Shown here piece after piece: positions 653 through 57,622 of a DNA stretch of 64,000 nucleotides. The position numbers and the translations under genes are program-made. This DNA comes from Lama guanicoe (lineage: Eukaryota). Numbering within the stretch: position 1 is the stretch's first letter; the number at the start of each line of letters is the position of its first letter. Below the pieces are notes generated by a model. The model made no database searches, was not told the origin of the DNA, and was given only the letters and a program-made list of their open reading frames with translations. The stretch lies in assembly GCA_013239625.1 (NCBI GenBank), contig MU053823.1:751565-815564 (forward strand). Direction: 5' to 3'.

Positions 653-2185
653 GTCTAGCAGTTGGGTGGAGCATGAAGTGTGATGTACTGAGAGATCATG
701 GTCAAAAATGAGACTGGATTGCTAAACAGGGACTTAGGTTAGTAGGGTTTTGTACATAACACTAAAACAGTTTCTTAGAAAAATGAGGAACCAAAGCCCG
801 GACGTGGCGAAACAAGGTTTGCCACAGAAAACCTGTGGCAACAGTGTGGAGGATTGGGGGGGGTGGGTAAGTCAGTGTTAGGCAACAGCCATTGACATCT
901 AAGTGAGATATAATTGTGTGATAATAAGGAGTGAGAGTGGTGATGGGGAACATTTCGCAGATGTTAGACCTGAGGAGAATTTACCTACATATGGCAAGTT
1001 CATAACATGATAGATATTTAATTTCAACTGAGAAGATATGATTTAGATATTTCTGAAACAGACCATGGAGATCATTGAGTCTGCATCTTCTATTGCTGTG
1101 TCCCTAGTTAGAGGCACTTGGGATCATCTGAAGCATAATCCATAGCTGCCATGAGAGGAGGAGCTTGCGGGGAGAGCGGACCCATCACCAGAAGGGAATC
1201 CTGCCAGTTCACTTTGTTGACTCTGGACAGAGTTCAAAACAACTCCATACGTTACCAGGGAGTCTCAGGCTGCCATTCAAGTACTCCCTGTCAATGCCTG
1301 ACTCTGTGAATACATGTCCGTACAATACTCTCTGATCTCATGTTCTCAGTTGCTGTTTATTCTACGACGAGCCACCTTTATTCATAAGGAACCCCTTCTC
1401 TTGCTCTTTGAAAATCCATATGATAATTCCCTGGTCCCCAAATATATTCATACCCCACTGATCACAGCTGAGACTGGATTTACAGTTCAAGTCTTCCACC
1501 AGTGTAAGAATCTTCAATTGTTTTATGAAGAATTTGCTTCTCAAATTTTAATCACCTGCACATGTATGATGTCAGCCTGCTGAAACTAAGATAGAAGTTG
1601 CTAATACTGAAATAAAGTGTCAAGGGAAATATAGTTCAGTTACAGAAATGTATTTGCTACTTTTGTTTTCTTCCTTTCCCTGTTCTCAATGCGTATCTGA
1701 AACTCAGTCATTTCCTCTGAAGCTCTAAGAACATACTATTTCCAGTTTTTCTAATTCATTTATCTTCTCTACTTATACTAAGTATTTGACATTTGCTTTC
1801 TTTGAAACACCTGCATTGAGGTTCACTTAAGTATTAAGGAAACTTTAGAAGAGATTATTTTAAGAACATTGTAAGTTGTAGCAGCTACTATACGAATACA
1901 TTAAAGAAGCTATAATGTTTGATCAACTGTTATTTCCCACTGTGTCCCTCCCTCTAAAATTCTCAGTATGTAAATTCTCTTAACTTTAATCCTAAGTTAT
2001 GAATCAAGTAAATGGAAAATAATAGTTCTTAAAATTTCATTATGATGGGATATCAAAACTGGAGGGTGTAGTGCCCTCAGATTCCTTACTTAGACATATT
2101 CTGAAAACTGCTTCTTTTTTTTTTCTTTAGGAAAATAAAATGATTACCCATATGAGAAAAAAGCAGGCTTGTCACACTTCCAAAT

Positions 2186-2191
2186 TTTATT
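2186..2191 (-). terminator. Candidate polyadenylation signal of the connexin-like gene
   Basis: tttatt on + = AATAAA on -, about 146 nt after the stop codon. Confidence 0.55.
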
Positions 2192-2337
2192 TTTCTAAGA
2201 TATAGGTTATCTATGTCGCCATGTTCTGGGAACATAACATAAGGTTAAAATGTGTACTGCTTCAATACAAGACCACTCTAGGCTTCTATGGCCTCCATTC
2301 CTTATCTCATAACCAATGATGATCATCAGGGCTACTA

Positions 2338-3072
2338 TCAGAATTTTATGCAGACTCTGTATGTCTTAGACAGAGTTACATATGCATTAATGGTGTACAT
2401 GAAGAACATAAGACAGAAAGTCATGATAACCACTGAGACTGTAGCCAGAAGTATGATGGACATTATCTTTTCCTGCGTCCCCATAACCACGCATGTATAA
2501 GGTCCGTGACACAGGTGGGTACTGCACCAAATGGATTTTTTAATCAGTGGTAGGTGACAGTGAATAAGAATGACTAAGAAGATCACCTGTATAGACAACT
2601 GTACGAAAAAGTAGACAAGATACATTGCCAGCAGATGTTTTTCCTTGGATAAGTAAAAAATCTCATCTTCTTTTATTTTAACATGGTCTGCCTTTTTGTC
2701 TGTGTCACTGGAGTTCTCTTGGAAAGGTTGCTTCTTTAGCATCTTGATTTGCTTATGCACACTCTGCGAAACAAAAAACTCCATCACAAAGAAGACGGAG
2801 GAGAAGGCAAAGCCAACCAAGTACCAAACGCCTAGGACAGGCTTAGTGAAGTGGCTCTCATAGCACTCGGCTACACAGGATTTAGAGATATTCCCATGGC
2901 ACTGGAAGTCTTTCGCCAGATCAAGCCAAGTCATTTGCACTATGTACACAACTGAAATATAAACGAAGCTAACGCTGAACCACAGAGGTCGCCCTATGTA
3001 GAAGTCTGTGGGGTCTTTGCTCAGCAGCAGTATGGTGGGTGTCACAGCAGCAAATACTTTATTGTTAGACAT
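2338..3072 (-). CDS. Divergent connexin-like (gap junction family) protein, 244 aa, single coding exon
   Basis: Uninterrupted ORF from ATG 3072 (aagATGt) to TGA; four hydrophobic segments; loop 1 FQC58-x7-C66-x3-C70YE; loop 2 C183-x4-C188-x5-C194VVMGTQEK, compare connexin C....CP..VDCF.SRPTEK; IGR..W before TM1 and W.D...F.C after it. The ORF-track start at 3255 is a GTG upstream of a splice acceptor. Confidence 0.85.
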   Translation of the reverse strand: MSNNKVFAAVTPTILLLSKDPTDFYIGRPLWFSVSFVYISVVYIVQMTWLDLAKDFQCHGNISKSCVAECYESHFTKPVLGVWYLVGFAFSSVFFVMEFFVSQSVHKQIKMLKKQPFQENSSDTDKKADHVKIKEDEIFYLSKEKHLLAMYLVYFFVQLSIQVIFLVILIHCHLPLIKKSIWCSTHLCHGPYTCVVMGTQEKIMSIILLATVSVVIMTFCLMFFMYTINAYVTLSKTYRVCIKF

Positions 3073-3080
3073 CTTGAAAT

Positions 3081-3100
3081 CTAGGAAGACAAAAGCAAGG
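3081..3100 (-). other. Splice acceptor of the connexin-like coding exon
   Basis: Minus strand reads ccttgcttttgtcttcctag|atttcaagATG: pyrimidine tract plus AG 8 nt before the ATG, the usual connexin gene layout. Confidence 0.7.
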
Positions 3101-4689
3101 TAGCATCGGGAGGAAAGAATGGACAATATTTTATCCCATTTACACAGTCTCTGCTGTTCTTCTAACAGGTGCTTGCTGGGAAGGAACTCAGTCGTCTTAG
3201 GTGAGAAGGGAACTCCGAAGAAATTTAGGAGACTGTCCAAAAGAAATACACCCACTTAATACTATTTGTTACTCTTTCATTTACTAACTCCTTCTTCTAA
3301 TTTTTTGTTATCAGTCTCTCTCCCTCACCCTATTTGGCTCCCCAACCGCTTCCCCCAGTTTATCGAGCCCTCTGCATAGTTCTTTATCCTGTTTGCTCTC
3401 ATCACAAACTCTTGTGTCATTTGCTTTGTATTATGATCTATATACCAACCTGTGTAAATCAGCCCCCTCCAGCCAACAGTACAGTTCCAACTGTCATAGA
3501 ACTCCCACAGGAATGGGGATATGAGTGCTTAAAGGTAAGTCTTCACCACTTTTCCCTGAGATGTATCTGTTTGAGATGGGTTAACTGAACTGACGAGTGT
3601 CATTTTAGGCCCTTCTTGAAGCCAGCTTTTCCAAAGCCCATCATCGGTTTCAAAACCTGTTTCTTAAAAAAAAAAAAATTAATTAAAAAAACAAAAACCT
3701 GTTTCTGATTAATCAGTCAAGACGGATGGATGAGTATATAATTGTCTTCTATTGGGAGAACAGCTTAAATCTCTTATTTCCATCACATTCTCCTGCTAAT
3801 TTGAAATTTTCACTGATTCACAGCTATTTTGAGCATCAAACACAGCTGTGTGTTTAGAAAAATGAATGAGGCAGTTCTTGCTTCTAATTACAGATCTGAT
3901 GGTGTGAAGAGTACTTATTAAAATAAATTTTTTATGACCTCTGTCATTTCCGTAATTCACTTTCCCTCCTATGAATTGCAATGACATTGTCAGAACGTCT
4001 TATTATTACACTGCTCTGACAGTCAGCATTTGCTCCAGCCTTTCCTACCAAGATGGCCGAGACTTTTGGTGACCTGCATCATAGTTCAACCTCTTCCTTT
4101 ATTCTATCCTGTTCTCCCACAGCCCTGCCCTGCTGCTGCCTTTCAAAAGTATTAATCTCTAAGAAATATTTTGTACCCCCAACTCTGTCTCAACATCTGC
4201 TTCTGGGAAAGACAACCATAAACACTCCTCTTCAGATCTTTGGAATCTGAGAGACAAGCCACACAGACAGAAAGTTGCCCCCTTCACCCTTGGGATCACA
4301 GTTACTGGAAAGCCAAGCCTCTAGAATACATTATGCTTAATCTTTGCCTTGGAGCGCTCTGAAAATACCCTCTCATTTAACACAGAGAAGTGGCAGACTT
4401 GCATCAACTTTCTCTATGAAGATTCCAACAGAGTCTGAAGAGGGTTTTGTTTGTTTGTAAAAGGAGAGTCACAGGCACACACAAGAAGGGTTGATTCATG
4501 TATTTTTGTCAACTATGTTACAAAATATTGGTTGTGTTTCTTTTTTTATTATTCTTATTTTTTACTGAAGTAAAATATGAATGAGAGGATATGATGGCTT
4601 TATATTAAGTTTAGATAAAGTTATGTCAAAGCTGATAATTAAAAACTAAAAACAAACAAACAAACAAAAAACCCCCTAAAATCACAGTC

Positions 4690-7310
4690 CTTCTAGCCGG
4701 AGTGGCATCCACAACTCTGGCTTCCCTGCCTGTGATGGCAATGCCTGTGAACCCAACAACCCTGGATACAGAAGAGGCACCCAAAACGCTGGCTCCCCCC
4801 ACTACTCTCTGCCTCCTCCACAATGGAGGTGATGCAGCAACCCAGGTGACCCTGGATGTCGCAAAGGCTCCCACCCTTCTGGTGCTCTTGGAGGTGATGC
4901 CAGAGCAGTGACACTGGCAGCAGAAAGGCATCAGCAACCCCAGAGGCACAAGTAGTGACGAAGAGGGTGCTGGAGAGATCTCTGGCAGAGGCAGTGGAGG
5001 TTAAAAACTGCCAATTCTCAAATAATGGCAGCCCAGGTAAAAGAAAACCAAAACCTTGTGCTATAGCGCCACCTACTGAAGAACAGAACAAAAGCCTCTA
5101 GTTACCAGCCCGCTGAATTGTTAGAAACAAAATAAATAAAACTTTACGTAAATAAGAAAGATGTTTGCTACCTCAAATGCTCCATCAGAGAAATAGTACC
5201 AAGCACCATGAAAAACCGTGGTAGCACAGTATCACAAAAAGAAAATGACAGTTCTCCAGAAACCAAACTTAAAGTCATGGAATATTGTAATGTAACTGAT
5301 AGAGAATTCAAAATAAATGTTGTGAAGAAATTCAGTGAGTTACAGGAAAGCCCAAAAAGGTAGCTCAATGAACTCAGGAATAAAATTAGTAAACAGGGAG
5401 AATACTTTACCAAAGGGATTGAAACTAAAAAAAGAACCAAACAAATTCTGGAGCTAAAGAACTCAATGAATGAGGCGAAGAATGCGTTAGAGAGCACTAG
5501 ACATTGAGCAGACCTCATGGAAGAGAGAATTAGCGAGCTTGAAGATGGAGATCTAGAAATGATTCAGACAGAAGTAGAGAGAGAACTATAAAATGAAGGA
5601 AGTCTATCAGATCTATCCACCTGCATTACAAAAGGCAACATGTTGATAATGGGTATCCCAGAAGGAGAAGAGAGGGAGAAGGGAATACAGACTTTATTTA
5701 AAGAATAGCTCAGAACTTCCCAAAGCTGAGGAGAGAACTAGATACACAAGTTGACAAAGTTAATACACCGCCTAATCATCTCTATGCAGAAAGACCTCCG
5801 CCATTATGTTAAAACTGTCAAAAGTCAACAATACAGAAAAAATTTAAAAGACAACTGGGGGGAAAAAAGACAGTGACCTGTGAAGATATCCCTATCAAGC
5901 TATCAGTAGTTTTCTCAGCAGAAACTCTACAGACCAGAAAAGAGTGGAGTGGCTACTCAAAATATTGAAAGATAAAAACTGTCAGCCAAGAGTACCCTAT
6001 CCAGCAATTATCATTTATATATGAAGCAGAAATAAAGACTTTCCCACGCAAACAAAAGCTGAGGGAGTTCAACACCACTAGACCTGCCTTACAAGAAGTG
6101 TTGAAAGGAGATCTTCCACCTGAAAGAAAAAGTACATAAAACTTTGAGTAAGGTAATAAAGAGACAGACAGAATCCAAAAATGGCAATTCTATATCAGAA
6201 TACATTGTTAAATAATTTATCATAAAGGTTAAAGGAAAAAGAGCATTGAACGTAAATGTAGCTACTTTAATATCATAGCAAACTCAACATAAATCAGATA
6301 ATTCGTGGCAACAAAAACATAGAAGGGGGAGAATAAAAGGATGGAACCTGTATAGGCAAATGAAGATAAGATGCTATCGGCAGAAAAAGGACTATTTTAT
6401 CTATGAGACATTTAAATAAACCACATGATAACCACAAAAAAAAATCTGGAGGAGAAACATAAAACATAAAAAAAGAGGAAGTGGAGAAACACATCATAGA
6501 AAACCACCAAAATGAAAAGGCAGACAGAAGCACAAGGAAAAAGAAACAATAGACACATAGAGCAACAGAGACAAAAGGTAAAACGGCAGTGCTAAGTCCT
6601 CATTTATCAATAATCAGTCTCTAAATGGACTGAGTTCACCAACTGAAAGACACCGAGTAGTGAGGTAGATTAAAAAACAAGATGCAACTATATGCTGCCC
6701 CCAGGAGACTCATCTCAGCTCTAAAGATTAACAAAAGCTCAAAGTGAAGAGATGGAAGATAACACCCCAAAAAAGTGGCAAGCAAAAGAAAGTGGGTGTA
6801 GCCATACTTACATTGGACAAAACAATCTTCAAGCCAAAAAGGTAAGAGACAAAGATGGATGAATGGATAAAGAAGATGTGATATATACATACAATGGAAT
6901 ACTATGCAGGCTTAAAAAAGATGAAATCTTTCCATTTGTGACAACATGGATGGACCCTGAGGATATTATACGAAGTAAAGTAAGTCAGATGGAGAAAAAC
7001 AAATACCACATGATTTCACTCATATGTGGAATATAAAAACAAAACAAAACAAACAAAACAAAAAGAAACACATAGACACAGAGAACAGATTGTTACCAGA
7101 GGAAAAGGGAATAAGGTGAGGGCAAAATGGGTAAGGGAATCAACTGCATAGTGATGTAGGGAAATTAAACTTGGTGGTGAGCACACTGTAGTGTACACAG
7201 AAGTTGAATTATAATATTGTACACATGAAATTTATAATGTTATAAACCAGCATTACCTCAATACAAACATAAATCAAATAAATTTAAAAATTAAGAAAAT
7301 AAAAATAAAG
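4690..7310 (+). mobile_element. Internally deleted L1: 5'UTR remnant, decayed ORF1 (ATG 5208), start of ORF2 endonuclease, then ORF2 end/3'UTR and A-rich tail
   Basis: ORF1-like MKNRGSTVSQKENDSSPETK...TDREFKINVVKKFSELQE; endonuclease-like ICCPQETHL...KKVGVAIL at about 6690-6810; 3' motif gaatggataaagaagatgtg from about 6860. Confidence 0.85.
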
Positions 7311-7374
7311 TCGAATACATACTTTGTTCTACCAAATACTAAAGTAAAAAAAAAAAGCAGTATTTCCAAATAAG

Positions 7375-7900
7375 TAGCATATAAATACAATGGAATATTA
7401 TTCAGCCATAAAAATGAATGAAGTTGTGATACATGCTATAACATGGATGAACCTTGAAAACATCATGCTAAGAGAAATAAGCTAGACATAAATGGACCAC
7501 TTATATGAGGTACCTAGACTAGGCAAATCTATAGAGATGGAAGTAGAATAAAGATTATAAGGGGCTGGAGCCAGGGGGTACTGGGGAGCCATTGCTAAAG
7601 AGTACAGAGTTTCTGTCTGGAAAGATGAATAAATTTTTGAAATAGGTAGTAGTGATTGTTACATAACACTGTGAATGTACTTAATGCCAGCAAATTGTAC
7701 ACTTTAAAAATCATTGAGGGAGAAGGATACAGATCAAGTGGTAGAGCACATGCTTAGCATGCAGGAGGGGTCCTGGGTTCAATCCCCATGTTCAATCCCC
7801 TAAAAATAAATAAATAAACCTAATTAACTCCCCCACTCCAACAAAAGAATCATTAAAATGGTAAACCTTGTGTTATGCATATTTTATCACAACAAAAGAA
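7375..7900 (+). mobile_element. Older L1 3' fragment interrupted by a SINE
   Basis: acaatggaatattattcagccataaaaa...acatggatgaaccttgaaaacatcatgctaag. Confidence 0.75.
7716..7845 (+). mobile_element. tRNA-Ala-derived SINE (vic-1-like)
   Basis: A box tcaagtggtagagca, tgcttagcatgca anticodon arm, B box ggttcaatccc, AAAT tail; imperfect flanking repeat aatcatt. Confidence 0.8.
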
Positions 7901-8914
7901 AAAGGAAAAACATTATAAGAATATAAAAAAATATTAAAGAGATGATGAGCAATAAAACCAATTAAACATGGGAATTAAGGCTAAGTGTTTTAACCACAGC
8001 TATAAAACTAAAGGAGTATAGAAAAGGAGTTCTTGAAAGAGAAGTGGAAAACCTAAAGAAAAATTAGTGCTTATTATAGCAATAATAATAGCATGATTCT
8101 AAATTCTTTATTTCAGAAACCAAATATGCAACAAAGTGGGAGGAAAGAGAAGAAACAAATACTCAAATTTCTTAAATTTTCGGAGTATATATTTTATTCA
8201 TTATTGATGTTGCAAAAGTTATATTTGAACAGTTCCCTTAGGCAATTAGCATTCTTTCTTTCTTATGGTGTGACCATAGATCCTCAAACCCAATGTGTGG
8301 AGCTGGAATAAAACAAAATTGGGGTGAGGATTAATGGTATAAAACACTCATATTCAGCTCCGTCTCTGCCAGCTTGCTCCCATGGCAAAAAACCAGAAGT
8401 CACATTTTAATGCTGGTCTAATCTGTCTCAGACAGTGTAGCAGGCATTTTATAATCATGACCTCATTTAACCTAAAGAGCATTTCTAGAAGCCAGGGATA
8501 ATTTGAAGGAGCACAAACATAGGACGAGGACAACTCGTTGTCACCTCTCTCATTGAGACACAGATATGGAACAGTCTGTGTCTCAAAAGATGACAGGAAA
8601 CAAGTTACCTTCACCAGTAAATCAGGATTTTGTAGGTCTAGAACAGTGAAGAAAGAGGTAAACAAGATGTAAAGAATAAATTCAAAATGTGTCATAGACT
8701 AATAGGAGTGTGACTTATTTGAAAGAGAGCAGATGGGAGACCTGTAAGGGGACAGGGTGAGTCAAATGGGAACACAAAAGGGAAACATAAGGGAGTGCCT
8801 GGGGAAATGGACAAGGAAATCCTGAAGAAAGAAAAGTTGTGAAGCCACAGAGGTTGCTAAAAAGGGATGTGTGAATTTCACTGATAGAAATCAAGGACGA
8901 GTCATACAGATGTG

Positions 8915-8969
8915 CACACACCCACACACACCACACACACACCACACACACCACACACACCCGCACACG
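8915..8969. repeat. Imperfect CA-rich microsatellite
   Basis: Repeated cacacacac/ccacacaca units. Confidence 0.85.
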
Positions 8970-10704
8970 TTTTTAGATTACAATCCCAGGAAATGTTTAG
9001 GTAACAGAGAGACTAAGCCTGCACTTAGGGTGCCATCAAATTATTGCATTCAAATGCAATTGAAGGGAACTCTTCCATATTTTAAGTAAAAACAAACCAC
9101 TGAAAGAGGAATTGTTGGGAAATTACCCAGAATTTTGTTGAACTTCCTTACTCGTGTTTGAAAGTCTAATATATTTTTACTTTGAATTACGTACATGGAA
9201 GAGCACCAAACTGTCTTCAGATCTTGGGACAACCTGAAGGCCCTGTCTGGCCCTATGTCCCCACACAGCCCTTGCTATATCATCCCTTTTCTATCTCCCA
9301 TGTCTAAAGACCTGTAACTTTTAAATCACGTCAGCTAAATAGTATTCCATAATATAATCTTAAAAGCAAAAACTGACATCCTTTAATCCCAAGCCATAGA
9401 CTTTCGAATCACAGAGCCTCCCTGAACACATAACAACCCTCATTTTAATCGCAGTAGTTCAGAGCTGCATGTTTTTGCCTCCTTTCCCTCTTTAGGAAGA
9501 GGTCATAGCCCTCACATTGACTACATTTCCTCAATCCTTCCACGTTTACTTCCTCTTCACGCTTACTTTCTCCTTCCCTTGCTAACCCTAGAGACAGTAG
9601 CCAGGGAAGGAGGACTGGGGAAGGAAGAGGAGCATGGCAAGAGGTAAAAAATTCAACCACAGATAATAAACTCAGCATTTCCTCCCACGCTTGGTTTTGC
9701 TGATTCCAGACCAGCTTACCCAACAGTGCTGCTGACACACATTTTCTTCTCTCTTCCCTTGCTCTGTTCCTTGTTCTGCTTTCCCGTATCTTTCTTGATT
9801 AGTCACTTACATTTCTTCTTTCTGAAATAACTTTGGACATTGTGTGTGAATGTACTTGTTCTAAAACATTCTGCTGTCCTCGCATGTGACAGAAAGACAG
9901 TTGATGAGCTGATGGAGTAGAATTAGGGGGACATAACATTTTCTTTCAACAATCCATTATTCTGTATCCATTGCCACCTGTGGCAGAAAGTCAGTTTGAG
10001 GCCAAGGTCATTTTTATTCCTTTAGCGTGTAGGTTACCTCTTTTCTCCCTCAGAATTGAAGGCCACCCTAAGCATCTGTCTGCTTTTTGACGTATTCAGC
10101 TTATAGGACACTTAGAAAACTACGATGCATTCTCATCATCCACAGGGATGCAGCCACATCCCAATTCATTTGCTACTGCTGGTCAGTTGTTATAAGCATC
10201 AAAGTACTAAGAAAGATGGTTCCTGATGCAACTAACTTCATTTCAGCTGAAGTTCAGATCTGAACAGTGGATCTTGGCAAATGTTCATGCAAGTAAAACC
10301 CTTCGGCCATTATCCACATTTTATTAAATCCTCTCTCTATTCCTAGTTCATTTCACCTCCCATCACCAGACAAATAACAGAAACATTATTAGGAGAAAAG
10401 GGGGCTGATTACGTCATCCTAATATAAATCAAGGTGTTTGATCTTAGACACATTGTTTAAGACTCTTATTTTATTCTAATAGGTTCTTGGTAACTTGTGA
10501 AACTGGAAATGTACTTATAAGCTCTGGATAGATCTGGGCAGTCCTAACACCCTGAGACCAAGGAGGTGTGGTGTTTATGCATGTGTTTTCTAGGTCTCTC
10601 AGACACCACCAGGTGTCATTGTTAATTAAATGCAAAAATATAATATATGGAGTAGAAACCATATTATATTGAGTTCAGTTGGGTGAAAGGAACACAAACT
10701 GCTT

Positions 10705-13317: not shown

Positions 13318-13827
13318 TTTTTTTTTTTTTTAACATTTTTTATTGATTTATAATCATTTTACAATGTTACAATGTNNNNNNNNNNNNNNNNNNNNNNNNN
13401 NNNNNNNNNNNNNNNNNNNNNNNNNNNNNNNNNNNNNNNNNNNNNNNNNNNNNNNNNNNNNNNNNNNNNNNNNNNNNNNNNNNNNNNNNNNNNNNNNNNN
13501 NNNNNNNNNNNNNNNNNNNNNNNNNNNNNNNNNNNNNNNNNNNNNNNNNNNNNNNNNNNNNNNNNNNNNNNNNNNNNNNNNNNNNNNNNNNNNNNNNNNN
13601 NNNNNNNNNNNNNNNNNNNNNNNNNNNNNNNNNNNNNNNNNNNNNNNNNNNNNNNNNNNNNNNNNNNNNNNNNNNNNNNNNNNNNNNNNNNNNNNNNNNN
13701 NNNNNNNNNNNNNNNNNNNNNNNNNNNNNNNNNNNNNNNNNNNNGAACTCATATGGTATTTTTCTTTCTCTTTCTGGCTTACTTCACTTAGAATGACATT
13801 CTCCAGGAGCATCCATGTGGCTGCAAA
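13318..13827 (-). mobile_element. Young 5'-truncated L1 insertion spanning the assembly gap
   Basis: PolyT start, L1 3' sequence on both sides of the Ns, perfect 13-bp TSD tgcccctttattc at 13305-13317 and 13828-13840. Confidence 0.85.
13376..13744. other. Assembly gap (369 N)
   Basis: Run of n characters. Confidence 1.
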
Positions 13828-25399: not shown

Positions 25400-47405
<22,006 letters not shown>

Positions 47406-55184: not shown

Positions 55185-57000
55185 TGAGAAACATGGTCAT
55201 GGTAGCACAACAAGTGTGCAGCAGTTTCTGAGAACCGGGGCGGGAGGGTGGTGTAACCACAGAACCCGAGATTTGCCCAGCCTCTGTGAGGACACAGAGA
55301 AATGACAGAAATGCCTTGAAAAGGGCAAAGTGGTTGTGTGTGAGAGAGATAGTGGCCCACTCAAGTTCTCATGTCTCAGAAAAGACAGCTGTACTTTCCA
55401 TGGTCACTTAGAGAACCCCCGGTGACAAGCCTGTGTCTCTTTACCCCTCCATGAAAGAGATACCCCTTCACTCATCGCTGGAAAAGGAACAACTGCAGAC
55501 AAGGACACTCATTTGACTCCTTTGAGATCGTCACTTGGGGTACTGAGTTCTGACTTTGGACTCCTAAGGGCAAACGAGGGTCTCAGATTGTAGAAATTTT
55601 TCGTCTGCATTTGCCTCACTCAAGAACAGTGGCAGAGGTGAAGCAGAACATGGATTAGGGAAGTGGAGACATCTGTACAGATGACTGAGTGTTACAGTGA
55701 CTTCACGTGAAATTTGGGGCAATTCACTTAGTACATTATATATTCTCATTTATATAGTGGTGTGTTGGATTAGGCATCATGGTGGTTTAGTATTAAAACC
55801 ACCAGAAACATCACAGAAATAGAGAAAAAGGAGAAAATTTTCCAGAATGAAAACTCAGTTTGATAAATGTTCTCCCCAGAGAGAAGGCTCAGAGGCTCAG
55901 CTGAGAGGAAGGGAAGATCATGTGCAGAACGTGTGGGGCTGCCTCACTGAAACCACATTGGTGCGTGTTGTCTCAGATCATATGGGGCACGGACTGTGGA
56001 CCTGACAGAGCTGCCAGCTTTAACCAGAGGTGAAGGACAAGGAACACCAGCTGGCCTTCCCAGATGGCCCGTTTTTTTATAATATCGTCATCTTTACCCT
56101 TATCCACAGCATTATGCAGGGCGTATCTGTATCTGAGAATGACTAAGACTAAGTTCCCTGGGTCAGAGACAAATGTTTGGAAACCCTTTCCCAGGTGCCC
56201 AGGATCTACAGGGTCTCCCATATCCCTGCGCCTGGGCATTAATCTCAGCTCAGGCAGGGCCCTGAATTCTTCCTCATGCTCACAGGCATACCAGGAACAG
56301 ACTTCCCAGGCCTGTCCTCACCCATGTTCCCCAGGTATTTCCGTCATACCCGGAAATATAATTTTTAAAAACTCTTGGCCCAGGGTCATTTAAAGTCCTT
56401 TAAAGCCCAGAGAAGAGGAATTGTTTTCCCAGATCAGGTAGCAAGGAACATATTTTCCTAGTACCTTATACATTAATAGATCCCTTCTCTTCCTTCCATA
56501 TATACATTTTCTAGGCTCCACATTGAGATATTTCTTTATGTGTTCATCAACCTCCCTGAAGAAGGGGCAGACTGAGAAAAATGCAATGATAAGGATGGTC
56601 ATTGCAAGTAGGACAGATAGCCCCAAAGCCACACTCGGGTGTACCTTGGTGTCTGATTCAAACTCAAACATGAAGATGCCAATAAGGATAAAGGAATTCT
56701 CTGTCCCAGCTCTGTCACCTTCTACACGATCAGGATGATGAAGTCATAGAAACAATGGGAGAGATGAATATCTCAGTGGGAGCTGGCCAAGCCTTACGTG
56801 TGCCATAAAGGAAACACTGACCAAAATCAGATAGTTTCTTCCCTACAAAAGCCTCCAGGACCCCCGAAACACTAGCTTGTCTAACCTTGACCAGGAAGAG
56901 GGAAGACTCACACACATGTGTCCAGAATGAGTGTGTTTTCACTTTGGAATCATATCCACAGACAAAGGCCATGGCCTGTTTCCTTGGACTCTGCAAACTT
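55185..57000. repeat. Tandem duplication unit 1
   Basis: 55185-55730 closely matches 60404-60938; about 55800-57000 matches about 61490-62720 with lower identity. Confidence 0.9.
55472..56671 (-). pseudogene. Disabled copy of the small single-TM protein gene (exon equivalents 56671-56530, 56142-56051, 55563-55472)
   Basis: Exon 1 encodes 47 aa aligning without gaps to copy 2; donor 1 reads AT and donor 2 reads CT instead of GT; exon 2 is 92 vs 90 nt (expanded A run, frameshift). Confidence 0.65.
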
Positions 57001-57622
57001 AGAGCCAATTTTATTTAGAGAGAAAGACATTTAGCTGGAAGATGAAGAAAGATCAAGTGTTCCTGAACAGAACGTCCAGATCCTGCCGTCGAAGTTCCAG
57101 AATCCCGCGTCTTGGTGAACTTACTCGGCTCGGGAATGTGTGTCCCGCTGACTGCGGGAGTATCTCTCCAGTCACATTCGTCAGGGGAGGGAGCGGCTTC
57201 TTTTCTGAGTGCAATATGATGCTGCTTTCTGAACTAAACAGACTATTAGGCAGAGGAGTTTCTGTGAATGTCAGCATAATGTGCTCCCTCGGCCCTCAGC
57301 TGCGGCTCTGGAGACAGTGGGGAAAGATGAGGGAGAGGATTTCCACACTTGGAATTCATTTCTTAAAGGACGGACTCTCAGTATAGTACGTGGCCAGTGT
57401 TTGGCCCTGCTGACCCAGCACCCTGAAGAAACCTGCGGAGAAAAGAAATAGAAGTAGCTAAAGGAATCCTGGGTTGGGGTCGCCAGGTTTTCTGCTGAAG
57501 GTAAACCGAGAGCTCCCCTTTGCACTAGAGAGGCAACTGAGCTGCATTTCCTCTTGTCAGTTCCTCGTCCTTCCTGCCTCCTTGTGCGCGCTTCCTGAAT
57601 GGTAGGGGCTGGGAGACTGAGA

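Follow-up and report, generated by a model that had tools for sequence, protein, structure and literature searches.

A zeta-clade connexin gene of Lama guanicoe with a clade-wide N-glycosylation sequon at the tip of its first extracellular loop

We analyzed 64,000 nucleotides of Lama guanicoe (assembly GCA_013239625.1, contig MU053823.1, forward-strand positions 751,565 to 815,564), referred to below as the window. On its minus strand, positions 2338..3072 form an open reading frame of 244 codons, which the frame itself, Pfam, a phylogenetic tree and the ratio of replacement to silent differences per site (pN/pS) identify as the one coding exon of a connexin in the zeta (gjz1-like) clade, belonging to mammalian paralogue ‘a’. 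The camelid 244-residue protein scores 57.3 bits against the Pfam family PF00029 (Connexin; cut-off 31.3) and is 98% identical to the protein of Camelus LOC116661262/LOC116150314 (C. ferus and C. dromedarius), with five residues differing. No second connexin was found in the window, where tblastn with nine queries matched this gene alone at E < 0.01.

The 5′ untranslated region is interrupted by a 6,639-nt GT-AG intron (3081..9719, minus strand), with its acceptor 8 nt before the connexin ATG; on the far side of this intron is an upstream exon (9720..9804, minus strand; far end approximate). Both were placed from a contig of run X1 together with the splice dinucleotides: the alignment of the contig to the window breaks off at 3081, and the unaligned end is an exact match to 9721–9746. 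An out-of-frame ATG at 9740–9742 in the upstream exon opens, after splicing, a 12-codon upstream reading frame that overlaps the connexin start codon. Four of the 24 runs listed were compared over 1200–4600 and differ from the window by a few percent, pointing to a close relative as their source; X2 and X6 are recorded as RNA, and X1 is taken to be RNA by guess only. RNA contigs of X2 and X6 cover the entire coding region, that of X2 continuing unspliced to 3444, and X6 has the five Camelus residues that differ from the window protein. Of 577 replacement and 155 silent sites compared, the window and X6 differ at 5 and 10, respectively (pN/pS 0.13, p = 2e-4). The camelid gene is intact and under purifying selection, and it is spliced in RNA of a close relative. 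An AATAAA at 2186..2191 (minus strand) is a likely polyadenylation signal, for which the contig ends at 2172 (X6) and 2150 (X5) are a weak hint only.

Two further observations concern these runs. X2 is labelled ‘reproductive system metagenome’, a hint that does not amount to a tissue assignment. The X5 contig spans 3334–3659 and a loose end of X6 resembles 3450–3463 beside a GT, a possible second 5′ exon; the corresponding donor at 3449/3450 was set aside, as its 14-base match with 2 mismatches was equalled in 32 of 100 shuffles.

By sequence, the camelid protein is a member of the gjz1 (zeta) clade, a barely studied branch of vertebrate connexins. Its zebrafish representative gjz1/Cx26.3 (si:rp71-1c10.10, ENSDARG00000086255) was named in 2022 as previously unreported; its authors described it as an outgroup to the other connexins that is conserved in mammals, knew of no phenotype and listed no human homologue (PMC9073686). 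The accessible part of PMC9073686 gives no function or phenotype for gjz1, and the word ‘cysteine’ is absent from the main text. Such genes were elsewhere set aside as a possible further subfamily (PMC7914757), and PMC6858305, in its accessible part, names 21 placental gene clusters without this clade. In a zebrafish expression table, the highest value for gjz1 is 1.4% of cells among the rows listed (30 of 238).

Homologues were collected by a word search (28 relatives), an exhaustive profile search (77 proteins) and a search from distant members (34 proteins); a further search with alignment A2 yielded no additional protein. The species-named relatives of the word search are all placental mammals, several of the 34 proteins are named gjz1 or ‘gap junction protein zeta 1’, and look-ups place members in monotremes, shrew, armadillo, caecilian, coelacanth, gar, sturgeon, teleosts, catshark, electric ray and turtle. 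Open frames occur in camel, dog, cats, bats, mole, hedgehog, lemur, squirrels, deer mouse and monotremes. Among the named matches of these searches there is no human or mouse protein.

In a quick IQ-TREE maximum-likelihood tree of 63 rows (41 zeta-type and 22 canonical, with Cx23 and a row named GJC3 not included), all zeta-type rows stand apart from the canonical connexins with a Shimodaira–Hasegawa-like approximate likelihood ratio test (SH-aLRT) value of 100. Mammals and gjz1-named fish form one branch, Z1 (SH-aLRT 88), in which gjz1-named sequences of Amia, Erpetoichthys, Astyanax and Paramisgurnus group with the camelid protein, and sequences of coelacanth, caecilian, gar, shark, ray and turtle form a second, Z2 (96). 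Mammalian paralogue ‘a’ (98) contains the camelid protein and has paralogue ‘b’ as its sister (100 jointly). The mammalian stem is long, at 0.98 changes per column, and orthologues are only 44–73% identical. Within the gjz1/Cx26.3 clade the camelid protein is 30% identical to Amia gjz1 (235 columns, E 7e-28). Because mammals have two paralogues, the camelid gene is at best a co-orthologue of zebrafish gjz1.

Some of the homologue records deserve mention in their own right. Paralogue ‘b’ (P0064, P0066, P0146, P0060 and P0172) is absent from the window and apparently shares a contig with ‘a’ in cat, cheetah, platypus and echidna, which suggests a tandem pair in these species; the ‘b’ records of cat, cheetah, a canid and alpaca end within the third transmembrane helix (TM3) and are either mis-annotated or decaying. 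Frameshifted relatives (P0024, P0027 and P0028) suggest loss of the zeta gene in some mammals. The gar proteins P0143 and P0092, one from each ancient branch, apparently share a contig, hinting at an old linked pair. The annotation of the turtle-type P0089 puts two connexin domains on a single chain, which probably represents two fused gene models.

The stretch 2863..2901 (minus strand) encodes CHGNISKSCVAEC, the loop-1 cysteine motif C58-x7-C66-x3-C70 (C58 at 2899–2901, C66 at 2875–2877 and C70 at 2863–2865). A preliminary description of this DNA had read here a C58-x7-C66 spacing enclosing N61-I-S, and the translation agrees: N61-I62-S63 (2884..2892, minus strand) is an N-glycosylation sequon at the loop-1 tip and the only extracellular one of the protein, the other, at N120, lying in the cytosolic loop. 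That description had spoken of a one-residue insertion, which holds for mammals, where all 36 zeta sequences have seven residues between the first two cysteines against six in all 26 canonical connexins; it is no constant of the clade, however, as the spacing ranges from x5 to x12 in non-mammalian zeta sequences.

Sequon conservation in orthologues, which the preliminary description had proposed as a test, was found well beyond mammals. We entered 87 zeta-type representatives, of which 78 have an intact three-cysteine loop-1 motif; the sequon is present in 66 of these 78, from sharks to mammals, versus none of 26 canonical connexins, which mostly begin loop 1 with C-N-T. By group it occurs in 20/26 sequences of paralogue ‘a’, 8/10 of paralogue ‘b’, 32/36 of non-mammalian Z1 and 6/6 of Z2. 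Shuffling the residues between the first two cysteines gave mean counts of 2.8, 1.7, 11.2 and 1.3, respectively, and reached the observed counts in 0, 0, 0 and 1 of 2,000 trials, figures that should not be read as probabilities since the sequences are related and include a few isoforms or near-copies. The count left aside nine rows without an intact motif (six of which still have a sequon by eye), fragments without loop 1 and four long-loop domains. The enrichment is local: in the 70-row alignment A5, 59 of 64 asparagines at the loop-1 tip fall within sequons, compared with 7/56 in loop 2, 25/114 in the cytosolic loop and 0/28 at the N-terminus.

The position of the sequon varies within the loop. 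Counted from the first cysteine, the asparagine stands at +1 in 33 sequences (C-N-x-T/S; sharks, coelacanth, sturgeon, teleosts and caecilian), at +3 in 32 (salamanders, mammals and gar Z2) and at +4 in one frog, so that the camelid +3 contrasts with +1 in fish gjz1. It was relocated separately in Z1 tetrapods and in Z2 gar, at least two moves on the tree, and its retention through these relocations argues for selection on the motif rather than on one residue. As judged from these alignments, the conserved sequon is a trait of the whole zeta clade and not of one species.

Several individual sequences stand out in this region. The alpaca copy of paralogue ‘b’ is without the sequon. P0021 and P0023 (pocket gopher and kangaroo rat), both likewise sequon-less, have an acidic expansion of ∼50 residues in the cytosolic loop, and the turtle-type P0089, P0130 and P0106 have 12–13 residues between the first two cysteines.

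The docking surface has diverged as well. In Cx26, N54 and Q57 of loop 1 and K168, N176, T177 and D179 of loop 2 bond across the gap (PMC5414816); we assigned the corresponding positions by distance from the loop cysteines. The N54 place is taken by H59 (2896..2898, minus strand), a histidine in 34/36 mammalian zeta sequences. A glutamine is found anywhere between the first two cysteines in only 6/78 zeta sequences versus 23/26 canonical ones, and none lies between C58 and C66. The loop-2 motif C183-x4-C188-x5-C194 (2491..2526, minus strand) fits the published connexin motif of three cysteines per loop, with C-x4/5-C-x5-C in loop 2 (PMC6858305), and has G190 and T193 at the N176 and D179 places. 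The former is glycine in 29/29 mammalian zeta sequences; the latter is aspartate in 0/65 zeta sequences (glutamate in 13) versus 22/26 canonical connexins. By this positional comparison, the Cx26-type docking residues are lost throughout the zeta clade. The length of loop 1, free in zeta sequences and fixed at x6 in canonical ones, is what would be expected if the seal between connexons no longer constrained the loop.

The preliminary description had also pointed to an extra cysteine at the start of loop 2. C172 is indeed present (2557..2559, minus strand), but it is a camelid feature rather than one of the family: among the 28 rows of alignment A1 with a residue there, the two camelid rows alone have it, tyrosine being the usual residue, and in the model it lies inside helix 141–178 (TM3). 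As a fourth loop cysteine it was ruled out on its restriction to the camelid rows.

A structural model built from 70 zeta rows reached a predicted local distance difference test (pLDDT) score of 84.5, an earlier one from 23 mammalian rows having been weak (59.7). It comprises an N-terminal helix (4–18), four long helices and a loop-2 hairpin. Its top eight matches among 48,161 representative chains are connexins (Z 13.3–15.4); the best are Cx32, Cx26 and Cx31.3 (Z 15.3–15.4, root-mean-square deviation (rmsd) 2.7–3.4 Å over 174–188 residues), headed by Cx32 (Z 15.4, rmsd 2.9 Å, 174 residues). N61 is in a coil (59–63) between strand 56–58 and helix 64–74. The TM1 helix ends at W49, 12 residues before N61, and TM2 begins 18 residues after it; these distances reach the 12-residue minimum reported for core glycosylation (PMC3226467). 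Four copies were predicted to assemble side by side with a score of 0.64, and the best of three controls scored 0.01; the runs had no fewer than 49% of contacts in common, and pLDDT did not fall below 65. The threshold applied was reached by 21/30 solved pairs and 0/23 single chains, by 7/16 from animals and by 1/7 eukaryotic pairs without an older solved relative; the pass indicates likeness only, may reflect memory of solved connexin rings, and concerns four copies, not a hexamer.

These features set the camelid protein between several known systems. With Cx26, Cx32 and Cx43 it shares the fold, the six loop cysteines and the loop-2 spacing, and its gene has the canonical layout of a 5′ untranslated intron followed by one coding exon (described in part in PMC10598745). 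It differs from these three in that they have x6 spacing, N54/Q57/N176/D179 and no loop-1 sequon. Cx31.3/GJC3 (rodent Cx29; PDB 6L3T) is reported to be hemichannel-only, and its N54H and D179T changes, considered the probable main reason why it does not form intercellular channels (PMC7455182), are the same His/Thr changes as camelid H59 and T193. The two proteins are only 16% identical (model match Z 15.3, rmsd 3.4 Å, 188 residues), and Cx31.3, a gamma-group connexin, is among the weakest connexin matches of the zeta profile (E 3e-9), which argues against orthology with GJC3; the common changes are therefore probably convergent. No glycan is mentioned for Cx31.3 in the accessible part of PMC7455182, in which ‘glycosyl’ does not occur. 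Cx23/GJE1 is also a divergent connexin, and in mouse it forms hemichannels and not junctions (PMC10598745). It has four loop cysteines and three exons according to the same source, whereas the camelid gene has six and one coding exon, a difference that rules out membership.

Pannexins (PANX1-3) have the same four-helix large-pore architecture, and their extracellular sequon is thought to prevent docking (PMC8769644). A conserved extracellular sequon is a pannexin trait that appears in 66/78 zeta sequences. Membership in the pannexins or innexins was nevertheless rejected: at E up to 1, Pfam returned only Connexin and one sub-threshold domain of unknown function (DUF), and the pannexin structural matches (Z 9.3–11.1, 8–10% identity) fall below all eight connexin rows (13.3–15.4). 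The camelid protein would work like a pannexin yet is no pannexin.

We favor, by a narrow measure of confidence, the interpretation that a zeta connexon with the conserved sequon is likely glycosylated at Asn61, stays undocked and serves as a single-membrane channel. Taken by themselves, the loss of canonical docking appears highly probable and the presence of a glycan on the protein quite probable, while conduction by the ring is likely, if less assured. Subunits glycosylated at N61 would assemble into a connexon ring in which every loop-1 tip bears a glycan, right at the surface that seals one connexon to another; the resulting steric block would be added to a surface already without its hydrogen-bond donors, and the undocked ring would let ions or small metabolites pass through a single membrane. 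A review reports that junctional channels were blocked when sequons introduced into connexin loops became glycosylated (PMC4019879, on Dahl 1994). Historically, one residue inserted into the C-N-T start of the loop may have produced C-N-x-T, turning the docking asparagine (N54 of Cx26) into a glycan acceptor, which in tetrapods would later have shifted two or three residues along. The preliminary description had envisaged a non-docking, pannexin-like channel on a connexin scaffold; the conserved sequon, the lost docking residues and the H59/T193 pair strengthen that idea, and the 6/26 orthologues without a sequon and the unconserved C172 weaken it.

A number of observations weigh against this interpretation. 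The six sequon-less sequences of paralogue ‘a’ (Molossus, Erinaceus, Talpa, Thomomys, Dipodomys and echidna) belong to several separate lineages and have replaced the asparagine by Asp in five cases and by Pro in one; the sequon is also absent in 2/10 sequences of paralogue ‘b’ and 4/36 non-mammals, and present in just 2/4 of the excluded long-loop domains (turtle P0089 twice, P0130 and P0106) and in 1/3 of the turtle-type domains outside the count. S63 is present in 26/26 paralogue-‘a’ sequences, including those without the asparagine, and directly precedes the helix at 64, so that both the serine and the Asn/Asp may serve to cap that helix. The fish acceptor is just 10 residues from the modelled TM1 end, borderline for glycosylation. 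The places of E47, R75 and R184, a conserved network, read L52, G81 and G198 in the camelid protein, and neither conduction nor calcium gating should be assumed from it. The overlapping 12-codon upstream frame may limit translation of the connexin. Docking can also survive such changes: junctions are formed by seven innexins that have sequons (PMC8769644), cell coupling is reported for human pannexin-1 (PMC9171361), and zebrafish Cx23 appears to make junctions despite having four loop cysteines (PMC10598745), so that loop divergence alone is no proof of non-docking. No experiment on any zeta connexin was found in the literature searched, most subscription journals lying outside that search.

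The alternative that survives best, though we consider it unlikely, is a protein that is glycosylated and undocked but non-conducting in mammals. It would act in scaffolding, adhesion or recognition and would need its glycan to fold correctly or for trafficking. The absence from mammalian copies of the charged residues of canonical connexins (E47, R75 and R184 places) would suit such a role; mammals have also lost a TM1 Arg and a TM3 Arg/Glu pair that most non-mammalian zeta rows keep, and the long mammalian stem and the low identity among orthologues noted above point the same way. The retained N-terminal helix, four-helix bundle, E201-K202 and D55 (the D50 equivalent) speak against it, as does the predicted side-by-side assembly, which may reflect solved connexin rings.

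Improbable, too, is a private gap junction, in which zeta connexins would dock only among themselves through a surface of their own, the sequon being unused or tolerated. All six loop cysteines are present, compensating substitutions at docking positions are thought possible (PMC5414816), six of 26 orthologues manage without a sequon, and the coupling by sequon-bearing innexins and pannexin-1, like the apparent junctions of zebrafish Cx23, gives this alternative precedents. What counts against it is that no alternative docking code is conserved, as loop 1 varies from x5 to x12 and the D179 place holds many unrelated residues; that an unused sequon is hard to square with its retention through relocations; and that H59 and T193 copy the changes of Cx31.3.

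A modifier subunit that joins canonical connexins such as Cx43, so that the mixed ring becomes a hemichannel or coupling is blocked, seems decidedly improbable: the connexin fold is retained and a single subunit unable to dock could be expected to break the seal, but identity to canonical connexins is only 14–21% and self-assembly is predicted. Least credible of all is a decaying or non-translated relic with an accidental sequon, for which the missing human or mouse match, the frameshifted relatives P0024, P0027 and P0028, and the upstream frame over the start codon might be cited. Against it stand open frames across many mammals (camel to monotremes), pN/pS of 0.13, spliced RNA in a close relative and the sequon statistics (66/78 zeta versus 0/26 canonical).

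The favored interpretation can be extended to the clade, where in our judgement the balance is even: jawed vertebrates, from sharks to placental mammals, may keep a connexin subfamily that has two ancient branches and underwent a further duplication in mammals, and that abandoned gap junctions by a pannexin-like glycan device through one inserted residue. Its members would be natural connexin glycoproteins and an unrecognized class of single-membrane large-pore channels, in mammals possibly tied to the reproductive tract. Reviews state that connexins are not glycosylated and invoke the glycan to explain why pannexins do not dock (PMC5983588 and PMC4019879); glycosylation sites have been predicted in placental connexins, with no location given in the accessible part of PMC6858305. 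The same literature search turned up no description of the zeta sequon or of missing docking residues in gjz1, and no naturally glycosylated connexin. The clade name and hemichannel-only connexins (Cx31.3 and mouse Cx23) were already known; what would be new is the glycan.

A connexin clade that conserves a sequon where docking takes place would contradict the no-glycosylation rule and allow a natural test of whether a glycan prevents docking, with the sequon-less orthologues of mole, hedgehog, free-tailed bat and pocket gopher as built-in controls. An uncatalogued zeta gene could account for part of the hemichannel activity of dogs, cats, bats, camels or fish. Medical weight is limited, because no human homologue is listed for gjz1 and none appeared in our homologue searches.

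Elsewhere in the window, other open reading frames gave no Pfam match in 13 of 15 cases and nothing significant in four of five of another set. The neighboring gene, at 27712..44602 on the plus strand, has nine SRCR-type exons identified from their open reading frames (three of the nine were scanned, all matching Pfam SRCR) and is transcribed away from the connexin gene; we take it to be CD163. A cluster of open reading frames of 90–127 residues on both strands at 55973–57386, one with a hydrophobic stretch and without a significant Pfam match, is possibly a gene relic. A run of N occupies about 13380–13750, and the A-rich stretch at ∼5100–8000, inside the connexin intron, is presumably a LINE-1 fragment, which it resembles.
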